Shown: positions 4,259-31,871 of the stretch, piece by piece | Layout of the letters: every line of letters begins with the position of its first letter | Numbering within the stretch: the stretch's first letter is position 1 | DNA from: Candidatus Omnitrophota bacterium | Lineage (GTDB): Bacteria; Omnitrophota; Gorgyraeia; 2-01-FULL-45-10 | DNA: 64,000 nt | Assembly (NCBI GenBank): GCA_020057115.1 | Contig: JAGVGJ010000018.1 | Coordinates: forward strand, 6,067 to 70,066 | Direction of reading: 5' to 3' | Notes under the pieces: generated by a model | What the model saw: only the letters and a program-made list of their open reading frames with translations | Databases searched by the model: none | Told to the model about the DNA's origin: nothing | Position numbers and translations under genes: made by a program

Positions 4259-5248
4259 TTATGCAAGAGATTTTAAGATCATGCCTTTTTGGATGGGATG
4301 GCCGCGGAGGAATGCATCCGCATCGAGTATCTTTTTGCCCTCTATCTGGAGATATTGGACCAATAAACATCCCGAGCCTGTCTTTACGGCAATACCGCTG
4401 CCCTTGACGATGTTAACGACCTCTCCCGTCTTCGCGGTCCTGGCCGCAGGGTATTCACAGGGCTCGGCCTTCCATATCTTGAGCAGCTTCCCGTCAAGAT
4501 ATGTATAAGCGCTCGGCCACGGGATGAGGCCGCGCACCTTATTAGCGATCTTCTCCGCGCCCTCGGCCCAGTCTATAAGGCCGTCTTCCTTCTTGAGCCT
4601 TGGCGCGAATGTCACTTCACCCTCTTCCTGCCTTACGAAACGCTCCTTCTTGGCGCCTATAAGCTCGATCGCTTCAAGCGCGGCTTTAGCTCCTATCTCC
4701 GCAAGTTTCTCATTTATCGTAATAGCGGTATCATCACTCTCGATAGGTATCTCTTTCTTCAGGATGATATTCCCGGCATCCATCTCCTCATTCATCTTGA
4801 TGATGGTGACGCCCGTCTTCACCTCTCCGCTGGTTATAGCCCAATTGACCGGCGCGGCGCCGCGATATTTCGGTAATAACGAGCTATGGATATTTATCGA
4901 ATAGTATTTGGGTATGGAGAGTATGTCGTATTTTAATATCTGGCCGAAGGCGACCACCACGAAGAGGTCCGCGCCTATCTTGCCGAGCATCTCCTGCGAC
5001 TCTTTAGACGAGGCATTCTCCGGCTGTAAGACGCGAATGCCTTCGGAAATGGCAAGCGCCTTGACCGGAGAAGGCATGAGCTTAAGGCTCCTGCCCTTCT
5101 TCTTGTCTGGCTGGGTCACGACAAGCGGTATATCGTGCCCGGACTTCAGAAGTTCCTTAAGTATGACTTCCGCGAATTCGGATGTGCCGAAAAATACTAT
5201 CTTCACAGGAGGCGCCTTTGTTAAATTTAAGAGGAGCGTTTTAAACAA
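4259..5248 (-). CDS. fmt: Methionyl-tRNA formyltransferase
   Basis: Carries KIVFFGTSEF, the formyltransferase motif HSSLLPKYRGAAPVNWAI, and a C-terminal Fmt domain. The start is ambiguous: TTG at 5248 or GTG at 5206. Confidence 0.9.
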   Translation of the reverse strand: MFKTLLLNLTKAPPVKIVFFGTSEFAEVILKELLKSGHDIPLVVTQPDKKKGRSLKLMPSPVKALAISEGIRVLQPENASSKESQEMLGKIGADLFVVVAFGQILKYDILSIPKYYSINIHSSLLPKYRGAAPVNWAITSGEVKTGVTIIKMNEEMDAGNIILKKEIPIESDDTAITINEKLAEIGAKAALEAIELIGAKKERFVRQEEGEVTFAPRLKKEDGLIDWAEGAEKIANKVRGLIPWPSAYTYLDGKLLKIWKAEPCEYPAARTAKTGEVVNIVKGSGIAVKTGSGCLLVQYLQIEGKKILDADAFLRGHPIQKGMILKSLA

Positions 5249-7320
5249 GCGTAAGAAGCCGCATACAATAGAAAGACCAATATAAGCAGCGCCTTAACGC
5301 CGGTAATGTAAGAGACGGATTCCAGGAGCCCGCCTACAACCGCCCCGATAAGATTCGAGCCAAGGGCTGCGTCCTTCACCTGCGCTTTGTCGAAGCTCAT
5401 TATGAATATAATGCCGGCAAAAAATATGGGCAGGTTAAGGAGCGTTGCGCCGAGTATGGATTTTGTCCAATATCCGAACATGTTCAACGCACCCAGCGGT
5501 ATCATATATACCGTCACCACCGAAAGAAATAGCAGTAGGTAGATGATCTTAATATCCTTGACCTTGACAAAATATACGAACAGGTTGGCTGCCAGAATAA
5601 GCAAGAGTATCGCTGATATTATATACGAATTGACGATCCACGTGGATCCGAAAAGCAGGTTGGCCTTGCTGATGTTCTGGAACTCTAGCAGCAGGAAAGC
5701 GCACCCGAGGAAAAAGAAATGCAAATTTATCTTTGCACCCTGGGAGCCCATCAGGACCTTGTAAACGACGAACAGCATGCACAGGATGGCCGCAGAGACC
5801 AGCAGATAGAGCCTTGGGATCATGGGCTTTTGAATATATAGGTAAGGCCAATCGTCTGTGGTCAATCTGGTGGTACCGGGAAAACCGGCCTGGGCATTTT
5901 TTATGTATTCCATCAGGTCCGGCTGCGATTCGGCGTGCCTTCTTATGCCATCGGGATCATTGCCCGTGACGAACATCACTCCGGCATAATTAAGGGTTGC
6001 GTCGGAGACCGTAAAAGCGTAAGGCACTTCTCCGAAAGTCTTCTTCAGAAGGCCATATATCCTGTCGCCTACCCATAACCTGTCCGGCACCACGTAGAAA
6101 GTCAGTGTAAATACGCCGTCGTCTTTCAAGCGCGCCTTCGCTTCGCGCATGCTCTCCTGGGTATAAACATAATCATCCAGCCTCATATTGTTAAAATTTG
6201 AGGATATCCTGTGGGAGTCCAGAACGCCGAAACTTATAACATCGTATTTCTCTTTCGATTTTTTTAGGAAGGCTCTGGCGTCATCGATAATGATACGGAC
6301 CCTCTTGTCGTCGTAAGGTTTTTCTGGATGCCAGCTGCGTCCTATCTTATATATCCCCTCGTCTATTTCTACGCCGTCCACTATTCCGGCCCCGGACCGC
6401 AATGCTCCGGAGGCATCATTGCCTCCTCCTGCCCCAACCAGCAGGACCGCATCTCTTTTATCGGTAAATTGGTATGGCAATTCATACGTGTTGAATTTCC
6501 TTTTACTAACGTCATATATCTGCGGAGGATATTTTTTGACGAATCCTTCTGACTGGTCCAATAGTGTCATGTAACCGACATTATTGACCTTCAGGACATA
6601 CCCGTTCCTGATGAACGAAAAGTTCGCCAAGGCATTCTCATAAAGCTCTAATTTCTGATATGGGCTCCAGACGGTCAGGATCGAGGACCGCGGCGTGCAG
6701 GTAACGAGGACCGCGGCGATGAGCGCCGCTACTGCAATGATCATATCCTTCCTGTTGCGCGGTACAAAGAATAACAGCGTCGCTATTGAAAAAGCAAACC
6801 ATAGCCAGGGCTGAGTCGAAAAGAAGGAGCATAGATTGAAGGCCCAGATGCCCGCCAGGCTGGCCAGTATATTGACCGAATACCCGATCACAACATTTCC
6901 GTATTCATCGAAGATCCTGCCCAGTATCTGGCCGAGCGGGATAAAAGCAACCAGGATCATCGCAAAGAACGACATTGTAAGCAGGGTGCCATAAAAGACC
7001 ATGGCGGCACCGCCTGTCTTAAACGCGCTGTACCACACCACTGAATCAGAAAACCCGCTCAGAACATCCGTGATCCTTAAGAACGGCTCTGACTGAGACG
7101 CGAGCGCAATAACGAAAAGCATGCCTATCGTTATCGATACATTCGCAGGCTTCTTGGCGTAATAACAACCAAGGCCTATCCCCAGAAAGCAGGCAAGCAG
7201 CGCGAGGTTGCTTAAATACGCGAATATCCTGACCTCCGTAGATATCCACCTTATCAGGAATATCTCGATGAAGAGCATGACAAAACTGACAATAAACAAC
7301 CTGATATTCTTTCCGTTCAT
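5227..7320 (-). CDS. Polytopic membrane protein with an embedded spermidine-synthase-like (polyamine aminopropyltransferase) domain
   Basis: 697 aa. Many hydrophobic helices surround a central Rossmann-type segment (LLVGAGGGNDASGALR…VEIDEGI…IIIDDARAFL…DVISFGVLD) typical of the spermidine synthase family. Confidence 0.65.
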   Translation of the reverse strand: MNGKNIRLFIVSFVMLFIEIFLIRWISTEVRIFAYLSNLALLACFLGIGLGCYYAKKPANVSITIGMLFVIALASQSEPFLRITDVLSGFSDSVVWYSAFKTGGAAMVFYGTLLTMSFFAMILVAFIPLGQILGRIFDEYGNVVIGYSVNILASLAGIWAFNLCSFFSTQPWLWFAFSIATLLFFVPRNRKDMIIAVAALIAAVLVTCTPRSSILTVWSPYQKLELYENALANFSFIRNGYVLKVNNVGYMTLLDQSEGFVKKYPPQIYDVSKRKFNTYELPYQFTDKRDAVLLVGAGGGNDASGALRSGAGIVDGVEIDEGIYKIGRSWHPEKPYDDKRVRIIIDDARAFLKKSKEKYDVISFGVLDSHRISSNFNNMRLDDYVYTQESMREAKARLKDDGVFTLTFYVVPDRLWVGDRIYGLLKKTFGEVPYAFTVSDATLNYAGVMFVTGNDPDGIRRHAESQPDLMEYIKNAQAGFPGTTRLTTDDWPYLYIQKPMIPRLYLLVSAAILCMLFVVYKVLMGSQGAKINLHFFFLGCAFLLLEFQNISKANLLFGSTWIVNSYIISAILLLILAANLFVYFVKVKDIKIIYLLLFLSVVTVYMIPLGALNMFGYWTKSILGATLLNLPIFFAGIIFIMSFDKAQVKDAALGSNLIGAVVGGLLESVSYITGVKALLILVFLLYAASYACLKRSS

Positions 7321-9068
7321 CGGCTCATCCCCCCTAACAATTTCTCAAATTCCGGGTTCCTCGGCTGGCCTAAAGATACGCCCTTCTGGTAATATTTAGC
7401 TGCAAGCGCCCGGTCCCCTGACTCCAAATATAGCTGGGCCAGAAGGGAATAAGCCAGGGCGAAATCCGGGTTCACCTCTATGGCCTTATTGAAGAACTTT
7501 GCCGCTTCATTTCTATTTCCTGATATCTTATGGACAAGTCCCATATTGCTATAGACCCCCGCATTGTTAGGGGCGAGTTCGGCAGATCTAGCATAATATG
7601 CAAGCGCTTCATCGGTCCTTCCCATCACTACGGCTACATTGCCTAGATTCAGATACCCCAGGGCAAAGTTCGGTTTGATCTCAACGGACTTCCTGTATAA
7701 AGCAAACGCGTCGTCATACTTCCCCATCTTGAAATAGACATTGCCGAGGTTATTGTGAGCGCCTGTATACATAGGATCGAGCTCTATCGCGCGCTTAAAA
7801 TACGGCACGGCATCGGCGTCGCGGCCTGCACTGCAAAGGGCATCGCCCAGGTTATCGTAGAGCTTGGGGTTCCAGTTGATGTACTTCACAGTCCTCTCAT
7901 AAAAAGAAACGGGGTTATTCCAATATTCATTCTGCTTCAATGTAATGAATGAATAGAATGATATCAGGGTCGCCGTAATGACGGCTGCGGCGAGGTAAAG
8001 CTTCTTCTTTTCTCCGAGCCAAGTTATGGCCTTCGCCATTAACATGAAAAGCCCTATGCACGGAAGATACAGCCAGTGCTCCGCCATGTAGGCGTTTATG
8101 GGATAGATGTTGGCTACTGGAAAAAGCGTAATCAAAAACCATGCTATCGAAAAGAATGTCAGGCTGGACCTGCGCTTTATTACAAGAAGCGCGAGTATCG
8201 CTATAAATATGAAAATGCCCGTTATTGCGGCAGGGTTATTCCACGGGAATACCGGCGCGCCATATTCTACATGAAGATCGAAAGGCCAGAATAAGATCCT
8301 CGCGTATCCGGTCATGGCTACGAAGAACCCGGGAAGCCTTTCGAGCACTGTCGTGTGTATGGGCAGGTTCTGTATCAGGAATTTCAGCGCCGTCACTCGC
8401 AAGATTATATAAAGGACCGACATACCGAGTATCGGAAGGAAGAGCTTCGGCTTCATCTTCTCTTTTAAAGTATAGTGATAGAGAAGGAACAATAGCGGCA
8501 TTATCATGCAGTTCTCCCTGGCGAGGATAGCCAGGATATAACTTGCGATCATAAAGCCGAATTGCACGGCGTCATCTTTCCGCGTCTGTTTGATATAGAA
8601 GATGAACGTGAAGAGGAAGAATATAAGAGACAGAGGGTCTGACCTTCCCGATATATAGCATATCGCCTCGGTATGCATGGGATGCGCCACGAACAACAGG
8701 CCTGTGATCAGGGAAAGAAGCGGATGACTGAACAGGACCGAGACGAACCAGTATACGGCGATAGCCGCGAGGACATGCAGGATTACATTGGTCAGGTGGT
8801 AGCCGAGCGTCTTCAAGCCCCATATAGAATAATCTGCCATGTAGCTAATCATCTGAAGGGGCCTGTAGAATGAATACGGCTGGTCGGCGCCCGAGCCTAT
8901 ATCCTGGGTGAATACCTTAGGCAGATTCGTCCAGCTCTTCACATACGAGTTATCCTTGACGAGAAATTTATCGTCGTAGATGAACTTGCCGTTCAAGGAA
9001 GGCGCGTAGATGAGAAAACCGAGAACGGCGATCAATATTATAGATATAACAGCTATCTTCTTGTCCAT
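7317..9068 (-). CDS. Integral membrane protein with C-terminal TPR repeats, resembling the PMT/TMTC-like GT-C glycosyltransferase family
   Basis: 583 aa. The N-terminal half has multiple transmembrane segments and the C-terminal 170 aa has canonical TPR repeats (…AIELDPMYTGAHNNLGNVYFKMGKYDDA…). Its start overlaps the upstream stop by 4 nt. Confidence 0.6.
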   Translation of the reverse strand: MDKKIAVISIILIAVLGFLIYAPSLNGKFIYDDKFLVKDNSYVKSWTNLPKVFTQDIGSGADQPYSFYRPLQMISYMADYSIWGLKTLGYHLTNVILHVLAAIAVYWFVSVLFSHPLLSLITGLLFVAHPMHTEAICYISGRSDPLSLIFFLFTFIFYIKQTRKDDAVQFGFMIASYILAILARENCMIMPLLFLLYHYTLKEKMKPKLFLPILGMSVLYIILRVTALKFLIQNLPIHTTVLERLPGFFVAMTGYARILFWPFDLHVEYGAPVFPWNNPAAITGIFIFIAILALLVIKRRSSLTFFSIAWFLITLFPVANIYPINAYMAEHWLYLPCIGLFMLMAKAITWLGEKKKLYLAAAVITATLISFYSFITLKQNEYWNNPVSFYERTVKYINWNPKLYDNLGDALCSAGRDADAVPYFKRAIELDPMYTGAHNNLGNVYFKMGKYDDAFALYRKSVEIKPNFALGYLNLGNVAVVMGRTDEALAYYARSAELAPNNAGVYSNMGLVHKISGNRNEAAKFFNKAIEVNPDFALAYSLLAQLYLESGDRALAAKYYQKGVSLGQPRNPEFEKLLGGMSR

Positions 9069-9125
9069 ATTGGATAATATTTTATCATAGAATCGCGAAA
9101 GGTGGAAATTTTTCGGGCCTCATTC

Positions 9126-9325
9126 ATGGCGGACCTTTTGGGGTAGGTCTGTCGCTTGACGTTCGTTCGGATTAGCCATCCTCACTCACTCCGGAAAAAT
9201 TTTGATGGCCGGCCAACCCGGACTATCTGGAAAGCTCTTGACAGGTTTGTCCGGCCTTTCTAAACCGGCATAAGGTATCAAAATTTTTCAACGGCCACTC
9301 CAGACCTACCCCAGCGGTCCGCCAT
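9126..9325. repeat. About 200-nt nested imperfect palindrome, either a structured RNA or a MITE/REP-like element, within a 448-nt non-coding gap
   Basis: Outer arms 9126-9151 (atggcggacc-ttttg-gggtaggtctg) and 9301-9325 (cagacctacccc-agc-ggtccgccat) are complementary. Nested inside, 9191-9206 (ccggaaaaattttgat) pairs with 9277-9294 (atcaaaatttttcaacgg). Further in are GC-rich stems ggccgg/ccggcc and ccggac/gtccgg. Confidence 0.6.
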
Positions 9326-9419
9326 CGCGTGAAACCGAAAGCATGACTTTAATGAGTGCTCTTGGAGCGAAGCGATTTGATGCCCTCGAGGGGTGGGGTG
9401 TTCTGGAGCGACGTTGAAT

Positions 9420-9447
9420 GTTGCGATTTTTCAACGAAAATCGCAAC
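9420..9447. other. Perfect 11-bp stem, 6-nt loop hairpin (gttgcgatttt-tcaacg-aaaatcgcaac), 70 nt downstream of the priA stop
   Basis: Perfect complementarity was checked base by base. No adjacent U-tract on either strand, so it is not a canonical intrinsic terminator. Confidence 0.6.
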
Positions 9448-9455
9448 CTTCCGAG

Positions 9456-9485
9456 CGAACTTTCCTCTGGAAAGTGAGCGTTCGC
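9456..9485. other. Second hairpin (gcgaac…ctttcc-tct-ggaaag…gttcgc) directly downstream of the priA stop
   Basis: Inner 6-bp stem with a 3-nt loop and an outer 6-bp stem with a bulge. A possible priA 3' stabiliser or terminator component. Confidence 0.45.
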
Positions 9486-9516
9486 GCAAGGACACTCCAC
9501 CCCGAGAGGGCTCACG

Positions 9517-11520
9517 CTACATGGAGACTGGGTCGACGTCGACAGCGATGAGGACGCCGTGGGGTTTTTTGAAGGTTGACTGAACGTCCCTCAGGAGCTT
9601 ACACATGTAGAGGCGCTCTTTGTGTTTGAGGAGCATGTTATAGCGGTAGTATCCGCGCATGCGCGATATGGGCGCCGGCGCGGGTCCTGAGAGCATCATC
9701 TCAGGATCCTTCTGGCGGATCGCGGCGGCAAGCTCCGCAGCTGCATTTTGCGCAACTTCATCATTGCGCGCCCTCACCGTCAACTTTGTAAGATTTATGA
9801 ATGGCGGGAACAGGAGTTCTTTTCTCGTGATTATCTCCTCTTCGTAAAATTTATCATAATCGTGTTTGGACGCGGTCTGTATGGCGTAATGTTCGGGCGT
9901 GTATGTCTGGACGATTACCTCGCCTCCGTGGTCGCCCCGCCCTGCCCTTCCCGCGACCTGGGTAAGGAGATTGAACGTGCGCTCGCTGGACCTGAAATCA
10001 GGGATATTGAGGCTCACGTCTGCCGAGACGACGCCTACGAGCGTCACCTCCGGGAAGTCGAGCCCCTTGGCTATCATCTGAGTGCCGACGAGCATGCTCG
10101 TGTCGCCCACCTTGAAATCTCCGAGTATCTGTTCATGCGAGCCTGCCTTAGAGGTCGTGTCGGAATCCATCCTCGCTATCTTAGCCTGCGGGAAGTTGCG
10201 GCTCACCTCAGACTCTACCTTCTCGGTCCCGAGTCCGAAATAGCTTATGTAGGCGCTTTTACATTTAGGGCATATGTCGGGCGGCGCCGCTTTGTAGTCG
10301 CAGTAGTGGCAGACGAGCCGCTTATCATCAAAATGGTAGACCATCGAAGTGTCGCACCTCTTGCACTTCATCACGAATCCGCACTTCTTGCAGTTTATGA
10401 AGGTCGAAAAGCCGCGCCTGTTCAGGAATATTATCGCCTGCTTGCCGTTCTTTAAGGTCCTCTCCATCGCCTCAAGAAGAACGCGCGAAAATATGGCGAT
10501 GCGCTTTCGCGTCTCAAGCTCCATCCTCATGTCGACTATCTTCACTTTGGGAAGAAGCCTCTCTTCGATCCTCTTGGTCAGCCTTATATGTTTATAATGG
10601 CCGTGTTTTGCCTTGTAATAGGATTCCAATGACGGCGTCGCGCTTCCGAGTATAAGCGGGCAATTGTTGAGGCGGGCGCGCTCTTCTGCGACATCGCGCG
10701 CATGGTAGCGCGGGACATCGTCCTGCTTGTATGATGTCTCGTGCTCCTCGTCTATGATTATGAGGCCGAGGTTATCCATGGGGCTGAAGATGGCCGAGCG
10801 CGCGCCAACGACGATCGACGCCCTTCCGTCTTTTATCTTCTTCCATTCTATGAATCGCCTGGCAGGGGTGAGTTTGGAATGTATGACGGCGACATGATGT
10901 CCGAACCGCGAAACGAACCTCTCAACGGTCTGGGGGGTGAGCGATATCTCCGGGACGAGCATTATCGCCTGCCTGCCCAGCTTTAAGACCTCGTCGATAG
11001 CCTGCAAATACACCTCGGTCTTGCCGCTCGCCGTTATGCCGTGAAGAAGGTATGTCTTGTGCTCTTTCTTCTGTATGGATTCGTTGATGGCCTTGAGGGC
11101 CTTCGACTGCTCTTCGGTAAGGTCGTGGGGAACCGATGACTTATGATCCTCTACTTTTATATGACTATCCTTTATCCTCGTGCCGATCTCAAGCTTCCCC
11201 TTCTTTATGCCTCCCGGGATGGCCGCCTCTATCGCCTCGCCCCATGAGCAGAAATAATTATCCTTGATCCAATGGGTGAGTTTAAGCATCTCGTCTGAGA
11301 GTAGCGGCTCTTTATCGATGACCGAAATTATCTCCTTAAGCTCTCTGGAGGTGTCTACCTCGTCGCCCAGACCCACGACATAGCCTACGACCCTTCTGGG
11401 GCCAAATGGGACAAAGACACGCTTGCCGATAGCGATCTGGTCTTGCGATAGGTCTGGGATCTTGTATTGGAATGTTCGGTCGAGCGGAAGCGAGATGGCG
11501 ATGTCGGCGAATTTATTCAT
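9517..11520 (-). CDS. priA: Primosomal protein N' (replication restart helicase PriA)
   Basis: 667 aa with a Walker A motif (GITASGKTEVYL), a DEEH box (IIIDEEHETSY), the Cys-rich zinc-binding insertion (CKKCGF…CKRCD…CHYCDY…CPKC) and a helicase C-terminal domain. Confidence 0.9.
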   Translation of the reverse strand: MNKFADIAISLPLDRTFQYKIPDLSQDQIAIGKRVFVPFGPRRVVGYVVGLGDEVDTSRELKEIISVIDKEPLLSDEMLKLTHWIKDNYFCSWGEAIEAAIPGGIKKGKLEIGTRIKDSHIKVEDHKSSVPHDLTEEQSKALKAINESIQKKEHKTYLLHGITASGKTEVYLQAIDEVLKLGRQAIMLVPEISLTPQTVERFVSRFGHHVAVIHSKLTPARRFIEWKKIKDGRASIVVGARSAIFSPMDNLGLIIIDEEHETSYKQDDVPRYHARDVAEERARLNNCPLILGSATPSLESYYKAKHGHYKHIRLTKRIEERLLPKVKIVDMRMELETRKRIAIFSRVLLEAMERTLKNGKQAIIFLNRRGFSTFINCKKCGFVMKCKRCDTSMVYHFDDKRLVCHYCDYKAAPPDICPKCKSAYISYFGLGTEKVESEVSRNFPQAKIARMDSDTTSKAGSHEQILGDFKVGDTSMLVGTQMIAKGLDFPEVTLVGVVSADVSLNIPDFRSSERTFNLLTQVAGRAGRGDHGGEVIVQTYTPEHYAIQTASKHDYDKFYEEEIITRKELLFPPFINLTKLTVRARNDEVAQNAAAELAAAIRQKDPEMMLSGPAPAPISRMRGYYRYNMLLKHKERLYMCKLLRDVQSTFKKPHGVLIAVDVDPVSM

Positions 11521-15402: not shown

Positions 15403-15403
15403 G

Positions 15404-15808
15404 TTATCTGGCCCCTATCTTCTTCAATATCGACCTTGAATCATCAAGTTTTTTGAATTCATCATACCCTTCGGCAGAGAAACCCGGGGTATTGTAAATA
15501 AGGATATAACCCGCATCCTCTTTTTCAATCGCCGGATAAAGATAATAAGCGGCGCGCCTCTTCTCGATCGACCCTTCTTCTAGCCCTATAAGCTTATAGC
15601 TAGAGCCTTCCGGCAGGGTGTTGTTCGCAAGAGCTATCAATTCATATAGCTCCTTACCGGTGATGTGGGCGTATTTGCCTTCGAGCGAGAGCTTCGCGAG
15701 GGTCTTATACTCTTTAAGCTGTCCTTTGCCCACAAGCTCCCTCACGGTGAATGAGGCCCACATTATCACCCAGATAAGAAACAGTATCTTTAAGATATTC
15801 TTCTTCAT
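15404..15808 (-). CDS. Small N-terminally anchored hypothetical protein
   Basis: 134 aa with a single N-terminal hydrophobic helix and a soluble domain I could not recognise. Confidence 0.4.
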   Translation of the reverse strand: MKKNILKILFLIWVIMWASFTVRELVGKGQLKEYKTLAKLSLEGKYAHITGKELYELIALANNTLPEGSSYKLIGLEEGSIEKRRAAYYLYPAIEKEDAGYILIYNTPGFSAEGYDEFKKLDDSRSILKKIGAR

Positions 15809-15832
15809 ACGGTTGATCTGCTCTTCTCATTT

Positions 15833-15880
15833 AGGGGACAGGTCTGTCTTATGCCTACTACATGTTCAGACCTGTCCCCT
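15833..15880. repeat. Perfect 14-bp inverted repeat, 20-nt loop hairpin in the 77-nt gap, ending 5 nt before the stop (15886-15888) of the downstream radical SAM gene
   Basis: aggggacaggtctg (15833-15846) is the perfect reverse complement of cagacctgtcccct (15867-15880). It is followed by ttt on the plus strand. The arms share the GGGG..AGGTCTG motif with the 9126-9325 element. Confidence 0.6.
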
Positions 15881-15885
15881 TTTGC

Positions 15886-31566: not shown

Positions 31567-31871
31567 CTTGAATTTTCTGCCGCGCGGCCGAGCGCGTTCA
31601 TTACCTCGCTGCCATAATATACAGTGCCTGCGAAATTAAATATAAGCACTTTTAATAATACAAGAGAACTTAATGTCACAAAAAGCGCTATAGAGCAGCT
31701 GCCCGCCCTCCTGAACCCGGAACTTACCGATGATGCAAGCGCTCTCAATAGGCCTATGACCGATGAATTCGCATAATAGCCGCCCAGGGCTCTTTCGAGG
31801 CTATTCAGCACCATGACCCAAAATCCCGTCATGCTTCCCAGTATATTTAATACGATGCTGTCATGTTTCAT
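31554..31871 (-). CDS. Small membrane protein, tentatively MotA/TolQ/ExbB-like
   Basis: 105 aa with 2-3 hydrophobic helices. It shows weak resemblance to the ExbB C-terminal helices, and its stop overlaps the next gene's start by 4 nt. Confidence 0.3.
   Translation of the reverse strand: MKHDSIVLNILGSMTGFWVMVLNSLERALGGYYANSSVIGLLRALASSVSSGFRRAGSCSIALFVTLSSLVLLKVLIFNFAGTVYYGSEVMNALGRAAENSRWLR

Follow-up and report, generated by a model that had tools for sequence, protein, structure and literature searches.

The window analyzed here, a 64,000-nt stretch of a contig assigned to a Candidatus Omnitrophota bacterium, has one large intergenic gap (positions 9069-9516), which lies between priA and the gene of a TPR-repeat protein. 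This gap is filled by members of a repeat family, a statement that is far better supported than the reading of these members as mobile elements that we also put forward. The family is clade-specific, multi-copy and intergenic; it has a conserved branched fold and terminal inverted repeats, the occupancy of its sites varies among relatives, and some of its members stand as inverted doublets. It is previously undescribed, in Rfam and in the literature on Omnitrophota repeats and RNAs, and is of a known kind, that of structured interspersed repeats. Our favored reading, to which we give slightly better than even confidence, is that the members are non-autonomous intergenic elements, similar to miniature inverted-repeat transposable elements (MITEs) and to REPINs, that would be mobilized in trans, with the fold as the recognized single-stranded form.

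Two family members in the priA-TPR gap

With open reading frames (ORFs) defined from stop to stop and of at least 100 aa, the gap at 9069-9516 was the sole gap of more than 120 nt in the window, in agreement with an earlier inspection of the letters alone (hereafter the sequence-only reading), and it was bounded by the stop codon of priA at 9517 and by the start of the TPR gene at 9068. All 58 of these ORFs were on the minus strand, and other apparent gaps were filled by ORFs of 134 aa (15403-15885) and 105 aa (31567-31867). No Pfam match was obtained for the four small ORFs inside the gap, and a scan of the 64-kb window for tRNA and tmRNA genes detected none. The gap also folded far more stably than expected by chance: its minimum free energy (MFE) was -182.3 kcal/mol for the minus strand (z -7.8) and -190.9 kcal/mol for the plus strand (z -8.1), values that were reached by 0 of 100 shuffles on either strand. 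The inverted repeats were found where they had been placed, i.e., the outer arms at 9126-9142/9309-9325 and 9139-9151/9301-9313, the second tier at 9194-9206/9277-9289 (13/13 complementary) and the inner GC stems at 9207-9219/9244-9256. A further hairpin at 9416-9430/9437-9451 contains a perfect 11-bp core, and an additional 30-nt pair (9382-9411/9482-9511), which had been missed earlier, surrounds the last two hairpins of the gap. The sequence AAAATTTT occurs twice in the 64 kb, both times inside the gap, and tracts of this type are concentrated in the element.

Module A (9108-9342, minus strand; core 9126-9325) is a full-length member of the family, as supported by nhmmer (197.7 bits), by the covariance model (CM) R1 (85.5 bits, E ~1e-22) and by the MFE fold. 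Its outer P0 pairing joins ~9335-9341 with 9109-9117, and its outer arms of 26 nt are the terminal inverted repeats. The 5′ strand of stem P1 (9301-9325) is composed of P1a (9316-9325, AUGGCGGACC) and P1b (9301-9312, GGGGUAGGUCUG), and the 3′ strand (9126-9151) of P1b (9140-9151) and P1a (9126-9135). Junction J1/2 (9289-9300, GAGUGGCCGUUG) has a CUG just before it, which together with its own GAG is the conserved CUGRAG box of the family. P2 (9195-9288) pairs 9277-9288 with 9195-9206 (AAAAAUUUUGAU/AUCAAAAUUUUU) and bears the long form of the apical extension (9207-9276), and P3 (9169-9181) is a hairpin, GGAU-GGCUA-AUCC, the loop of which is the counterpart of the conserved GCCUA loop. Junction J3/1 (9152-9168, GAACGAACGUCAAGCGA) holds the conserved CAAGCG box.

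Module B (9376-9514, plus strand) is the second family member, diverged and shortened, and it stands head-to-head with module A. It was not recognized by blastn, in which it looked unique, and its membership was seen only with a CM. When R1, which was made from the family with the P2 extension removed, was run over the 64 kb with the filters off, module B scored 48.8 bits (E ~3e-12) across the full model (1-160), and the runner-up reached 10 bits. In the CM alignment of 9376-9514 the GAUG start of the family, the exact CUGGAGCGAC junction, P2, P3, the GCG..AAG junction and a complementary P1 were all present, so that the gap holds two diverged members of one family. P1 of module B pairs 9383-9403 with 9491-9510, J1/2 (CUGGAGCGACG) is located at 9403-9413, P2 at 9414-9452, P3 at 9455-9480 and J3/1 at 9481-9490. 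The sequence-only reading had described two extra hairpins at this place; both are present, and the 11-bp core of the first is perfect, but they are not separate structures, since its "perfect hairpin" is P2 and its "compound hairpin" is P3 of module B. Module B lacks the P0 motif, and it is partly homologous to the upstream modules of three of the loci with which the window was compared (L006, L114 and L093). The two modules lie 5′ end to 5′ end with ~50 nt between them and fold separately by MFE; the halves are too diverged for mutual pairing. The same doublet order, B-type antisense and then A-type sense, recurs after priA in L006, in L114, and after the methionyl-tRNA synthetase (MetRS) gene in L185.

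A conserved three-way junction

A MAFFT alignment of 27 members (A2), which was not fitted to any structure, was folded with RNAalifold, and the consensus was a three-way junction of P1, P2 and P3 in a unit of 140-200 nt. Hence, the rod-like 200-nt fold proposed from the single sequence did not hold. P1 is a closing stem of ~25 bp; its outer part (GGCG/CGCC) is conserved, its inner part covaries freely, and it contains an A-rich internal loop and one bulged base. J1/2 of the family reads CUGRAGCGAC; P2 is a 12-bp stem around AAAAUUU, with a long apical extension in 15 of the 27 copies; J2/3 separates P2 from P3, a hairpin in which the (U)GCCUA(A) loop is conserved; and J3/1 reads GCGRCAAGCGGAAG. 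The conserved boxes of the family are GAUGGCGGAAC, CUGRAGCGAC and GCGRCAAGCGGAAG, and the P2 and P3 stems have an AAAUUU-type core in most copies. The paired cells of the alignment were complementary in 95.6%, compared with 81.7% when the partners were shuffled; changes on both sides were found in 24 of the 42 pairs, vs 15.6 in the shuffles and at most 9 when the partner was slid by 1-3 columns; and the covariation score was 0.369 vs 0.132. Since pairing and covariation went beyond the controls on an alignment that had not been fitted to structure, the "rod" of the single sequence is really a branched fold under selection.

The sequence-only reading had also suggested a regulatory small RNA (sRNA), possibly 6S-like. 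6S RNA folds as a rod, the large central bubble of which imitates an open promoter, and it is present in one or two copies per genome in a conserved context. The length is similar (~200 nt), and a single sequence of the family can be drawn as a long interrupted helix that looks rod-like. However, the window gave no Rfam match at the gathering threshold, the gap gave nothing meaningful even at E<10, and RF00013 had no match at that limit in 8950-9650. When 10 other family-bearing loci were searched against Rfam, nothing was found on the element and no 6S RNA at E<1, the only matches being tRNAs and chance sRNA hits. The covariation supports the three-way junction, i.e., a branched fold that lacks the central bubble, and the family is multi-copy, is found in both orientations beside unrelated neighbors, and has no conserved synteny. 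These results make it extremely improbable that the gap encodes a 6S-like RNA or some other classical sRNA, housekeeping or regulatory, that is present as a single copy.

In architecture alone the fold resembles the purine-type riboswitches, which also have a three-way junction closed by P1, with conserved nucleotides in the junction and a possible contact between the loops of the two hairpins, but the Omnitrophota element is multi-copy and far larger (P1 of ~25 bp), and it has no consistent class or orientation of downstream gene. A riboswitch or another cis-regulatory leader would have a constant position and orientation before genes of one coherent class, which does not fit the unrelated neighbors, the ~1:1 orientation and the TPR orthologues that lack the element. 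Two further candidates were discarded. The similarity of the junction to that of the hammerhead (CUGAAG vs CUGAUGA) failed by inspection, because A6 is a G in half of the copies, A9 is missing and J3/1 has 14 nt, and an 11-nt tetraloop-receptor (UAUGG/CCUAA) failed because UAUGG is missing from the short subfamily.

Distribution, site occupancy and possible mobility

The blastn search with modules A and B against the loci was nearly blank, and profile and covariance searches were required. With nhmmer and the CM, ~40 family members were found in Omnitrophota genome and metagenome contigs, of which 31 were distinct and full length, so that the multiple copies in related genomes that the sequence-only reading had linked to a mobile repeat do exist. 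A metagenome scan with a pattern derived from the conserved boxes returned 98 stretches. About half of them were not family members by nhmmer or CM (L088, L095, L096, L100, L101, L103, L112, L121, L125 and others); many of these non-family matches were exactly 52 nt long and may have another conserved sequence in common. No match to the family was obtained in 528 kb of non-Omnitrophota priA loci, and two patterns run against viral contigs gave 0 matches. As far as tested, and wherever the taxonomy of the contig could be checked, the family would thus appear to be confined to Omnitrophota.

Most copies are flanked by the P0 motif AAAWTTTTTCG...CGAAAAAWTTT, and in most copies an outer A/T-tract inverted repeat (AAAUUUUUCG...CGAAAAAUUU) delimits the unit; the extra B-type unit of L185 has a perfect 13-bp pair with this A/T-tract motif at its ends (AAAATTTTTCGAT/ATCGAAAAATTTT). 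Two copies lie within 10 kb in L082, the second of them between two glycosyltransferase genes, and at least four lie within 11.7 kb in L093; L090 and L114 come from one 830-kb contig. Some copies are truncated, and contigs end in or beside the repeats in L006, L082, L104, L123, L138, L144, L157, L186 and L187. Modules of other types accompany module A in some subfamilies; one of them is a separate rod-like module of 200 nt, termed U, which is bounded by ATATTTAAAGATTT/AAATCTTTAAATAT and, in its subfamily, always lies 5′ of module A (L083 7649-7855, L115 624-827, L168 1906-2109, L145 2-108 and, weakly, L154 575-758). Another conserved motif, CCCCATCCCAYGCTCGC ... CACCCGTAAAAA, was seen in many copies ~70 nt 5′ of module A, namely in L082 (2370-2435), L104, L130, L142, L113, L149 and L102; a potential pairing partner, CTGGGGTGGG, is frequent in the 3′ flanks, and the same box acts as a Shine-Dalgarno-like sequence for fmt in L083 and for a glycosyltransferase gene in L082. 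tRNA genes are located near three copies (L154 234-305, at a distance of 35 nt; L092 2655-2726; L113 73-145), which are too few for an association.

The flanking genes are unrelated housekeeping genes (MetRS, valyl-tRNA synthetase, a HypE-like protein and others), and by our own tabulation ~17 copies are in the sense and 16 in the antisense orientation relative to them. Copies typically lie within ~10-35 nt of the stop codon of a neighbor, and the distance of one end from it is usually 2-36 nt, as in the window, L083, L124, L090, L134, L159 and L114. This position after stop codons would suit a host-domesticated REP/BIME-like cis element that acts as a stabilizer of mRNA 3′ ends, as an insulator between priA and the TPR gene, or, through its A4T4 tracts, as a site for a nucleoid protein, and such a role would also agree with the extremely stable fold on both strands, with the concentration of the AAAATTTT-type tracts and with the separate promoter-like site of the TPR gene after the element. 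Yet a generic exonuclease block or bend site needs neither conserved loops and junctions nor a three-way junction, neither module is followed by a U-tract terminator, and many relatives manage without the element at the same junction (e.g., L086, in which the priA-fmt spacer has 12 nt), so that we regard this explanation as unlikely.

The occupancy of orthologous sites was then compared. The usual order in relatives is priA, fmt and a CBS-domain gene, with fmt straight after priA, as in L003, L005, L083, L084 and L086. The priA-fmt site is filled in the window, in L006 (a module A homologue downstream of priA, in the same orientation), in L083 (the opposite orientation) and in L004, and it is empty in L086, L003 and L005. 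The empty spacer of L086 measures 12 nt and those of L003 and L005 measure 43-46 nt, and L084, L083, L004 and L006 have inserts at this place, related or unrelated. The insert of L084 (12020-12200) is an AT-rich, unrelated sequence bounded by an inverted repeat, to which the family model had no match, and L085, the sister assembly of L084, breaks exactly at its left inverted repeat. Similarly, L082 has the element between two Glycos_transf_2 genes, where L084 has none, and downstream of MetRS (87% identical between the two) L185 has a B+A doublet and L090 an A module only. All these comparisons of filled and empty sites are between species and not within one population, and they show that copies are gained or lost between related genomes. 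A special link to either neighbor in the window was rejected: no region of this type lies upstream of the TPR orthologues (67-70% identity), and after the priA stop codon the element is merely a frequent occupant that most relatives lack.

In the window itself, the TPR gene (583 aa) and a gene for a SpeE-like membrane protein (697 aa) occupy positions 5227-9068 between priA and fmt. This looks like a 4.3-kb insertion with the repeat doublet at its priA-side border. On another contig the TPR orthologue is directly upstream of fmt, and priA is not there.

The inverted repeats, which flank ~150 bp, raise the alternative of an inverton, i.e., an invertible promoter segment between the 26-nt repeats that would control the downstream surface-protein genes. 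The element of L083 is indeed opposite, with respect to priA, to those of the window and L006, and contigs break at the repeats, but L082, L083 and L173, which represent one species in three samples, all have the same orientation. No recombinase gene is found nearby, the same element adjoins dozens of unrelated genes, and no conserved internal promoter was found. Such a switch is very improbable.

The sequences of the copies suggest exchange among them. The L083 copy and the second copy of L082, from one species, are near-identical, but the 10-bp inner P1 has been replaced on both strands and is still complementary, and the same few classes of P1b recur across species. In L168 (1725-1890) a chimeric copy has the 5′ strand of P1b from one class (GGGTGATTGC) and the 3′ strand from another (GATGGCCAC), so that the stem is unpaired, which suggests that copies have recombined with each other. 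Identity among the modules of the U+A subfamily is 90-99%, while the 20-nt inter-module spacer and the flanks diverge; by this contrast the modules are to be taken as under purifying selection, for propagation or for a function in the host.

The element is short and non-coding, with many interspersed copies, terminal inverted repeats and presence or absence at orthologous sites, as in MITEs, and it forms extragenic palindromic units that stand as inverted doublets (window, L006, L114 and L185), as in the repetitive extragenic palindromes (REPs) and REPINs. It departs from the latter in that the unit is branched and has 140-200 nt, whereas a REP is a simple hairpin of 20-40 nt and the REPIN doublet forms one long hairpin. 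In the favored reading, an enzyme with its gene at another place in the genome would move the copies in trans, and the conserved fold would be its recognized substrate or product, either single-stranded DNA (ssDNA) or a transcript. The doublet in the window would then have no dedicated regulatory role and would mark the priA-side border of the 4.3-kb insertion. As for the MITE or REP-type repeat that the sequence-only reading had named as one of two options, the many copies in relatives, the variable occupancy and the assembly breaks speak for it, but neither a target-site duplication nor a transposase was found.

Several observations weigh against such a mobile element. Movement is inferred from patchy occupancy alone, and a target-site duplication could not be defined at any filled/empty pair, as the empty sites are too diverged for base-exact borders. 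In the loci examined no transposase, RAYT-like or other recurrent protein was found near any copy; a linked transposase was sought by clustering all ORFs of 41 loci, and housekeeping genes alone recurred. In the window's 64 kb of its own genome there are only the two adjacent copies. Furthermore, the unpaired bases of the junctions and loops show high conservation among lineages in which PriA identity is only ~71-77%, and the inter-module spacer diverges much faster. On the sense strand, which for module A is the minus strand of the window, G-U pairs exceeded A-C mismatches (21 vs 6); since 8 of the 21 G-U pairs come from one column, and the count by position is 12 G-U vs 6 A-C, this excess is no more than a hint of selection on an RNA. 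There is also a possible covarying loop-loop contact between the GGC of the P2 internal loop and the GCC of the P3 loop, which co-change to GCC/GGC in the window and to AGC/GCU in L108, whereas L142 and L133 disrupt the pairing (2 vs 2). The conserved unpaired bases, the G-U excess and the loop-loop contact would be expected of a functional RNA and unusual for a plain MITE. The strong covariation and the conserved unpaired bases imply that selection also acts on a functional single-stranded form, which may be RNA.

These points are the core of the case for a multi-copy family of independently functional structured non-coding RNAs, protein-binding or catalytic, in which the copies would be gene paralogues and module A would be transcribed from the minus strand. 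In addition to covariation in three helices and invariant unpaired bases, the lack of orientation bias relative to the neighbors is what autonomous genes would show, the modules are conserved while the inter-module spacer diverges, and in the subfamily of L083, L145, L115 and L168 the conserved GAUGG start is preceded, at a distance of 6-7 nt, by a promoter-like TTTAAA-18-TATACT. However, this "-10" of the subfamily sits in the fast-evolving spacer, and neither a promoter nor an intrinsic terminator is conserved family-wide. The local density of copies, the inverted doublets, the truncated and chimeric copies and the assembly breaks are typical of repeats, orthologous sites are patchily occupied, the G-U excess is largely one column, and two compensations in the loop-loop contact stand against two disruptions. 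We consider this explanation possible, although clearly less than even. Somewhat more doubtful is a new structured RNA class with an activity of its own (self-processing, or as the RNA partner of a mobile-element enzyme) that would have spread through Omnitrophota by that activity, as ribozyme-bearing or guide-RNA-bearing elements do elsewhere; the three-way junction of 160-200 nt, the invariant junction boxes, the conserved GCCUA loop and the possible loop-loop tertiary contact are the features that could belong to such an RNA. The sequence-only reading had set a mobile repeat against a structured RNA as exclusive alternatives, but evidence of either kind was obtained here, in the copies and in the covariation.

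Known repeat families and the flanking genes

The REP/BIME elements and REPIN doublets of proteobacteria are mobilized by RAYT (Y1) transposases, REPs are simple hairpins of 20-40 nt, and genomes with REPINs typically have a single RAYT gene. The Omnitrophota family resembles them in being extragenic, palindromic and multi-copy, in its location just after gene ends, singly or as inverted doublets, in its compensated stems, in that no target-site duplication was recognizable, and in the broken assemblies. It differs in the 140-200-nt unit with a three-way junction and conserved unpaired boxes, in the doublet halves that do not pair with each other, in that no RAYT gene was found near the copies, and in the phylum. 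With Correia/NEMIS (Neisseria), ERIC/IRU (enterobacteria), BOX/RUP (pneumococcus) and bcr1-bcr18 (Bacillus cereus group) it has in common that these are non-coding interspersed intergenic repeats of 100-200 nt, in either orientation, with terminal inverted repeats, a modular or mosaic make-up and stable predicted RNA folds. Compensatory substitutions have been reported for bcr1 and ERIC. Families of this type have defined target duplications (TA, TTTAT), whereas none was found for the Omnitrophota family, which has no sequence similarity to them and no Rfam match, has a more elaborate junction and boxes, and is restricted to Omnitrophota as far as tested. Searches of Rfam and of the literature on Omnitrophota repeats, RNAs and non-coding content returned no description of it.

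Omnitrophota are uncultured, mostly ultra-small bacteria that are known only from metagenomes. The family accounts for the breaks of their assemblies at certain intergenic sites, and rearrangements can be recognized by its copies at their borders, as in the apparent 4.3-kb insertion by priA. The CM and alignment made here can be used to annotate it in new metagenome-assembled genomes. With more conserved structure than ordinary MITEs or REPs have, the element may reasonably be considered a candidate structured RNA or ssDNA that has its own protein partner; as a purely selfish repeat, it would just add another family to a well-known kind.

The whole gap (9069-9516), from the priA stop to the start of the TPR gene, is made up of the two repeat copies and the promoter-like region of the TPR gene. 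The upstream flank, priA (9517-11520, minus strand), encodes the primosomal protein N′ with PriA domains, and its product is 71-78% identical to many proteins named as Omnitrophota. The downstream flank is the TPR-repeat protein gene (7317-9068, minus strand), orthologues of which are found elsewhere without the element upstream. A candidate sigma-70-like promoter of this gene, assigned by consensus match only, is located at 9079-9108 on the minus strand (TTTCCA, an 18-nt spacer, and TAAAAT with a TG before it). As this promoter-like site lies between module A and the start codon, the doublet more likely belongs to the 3′ region of priA than to the leader of the TPR gene, and as a side effect the priA transcript would probably end, before the separate TPR promoter, in a structured 3′ region of great stability. 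The promoter-like site (9068-9108) leaves only ~10 nt between the -10 box and the ATG, and a Shine-Dalgarno sequence could not be seen, so that the TPR mRNA may be nearly leaderless. At the scale of the window (1-64000), the genes are largely a string for glycosyltransferases and cell-envelope functions, the GC skew is negative in most 1-kb windows, and the cumulative skew declines almost steadily over the 64 kb.

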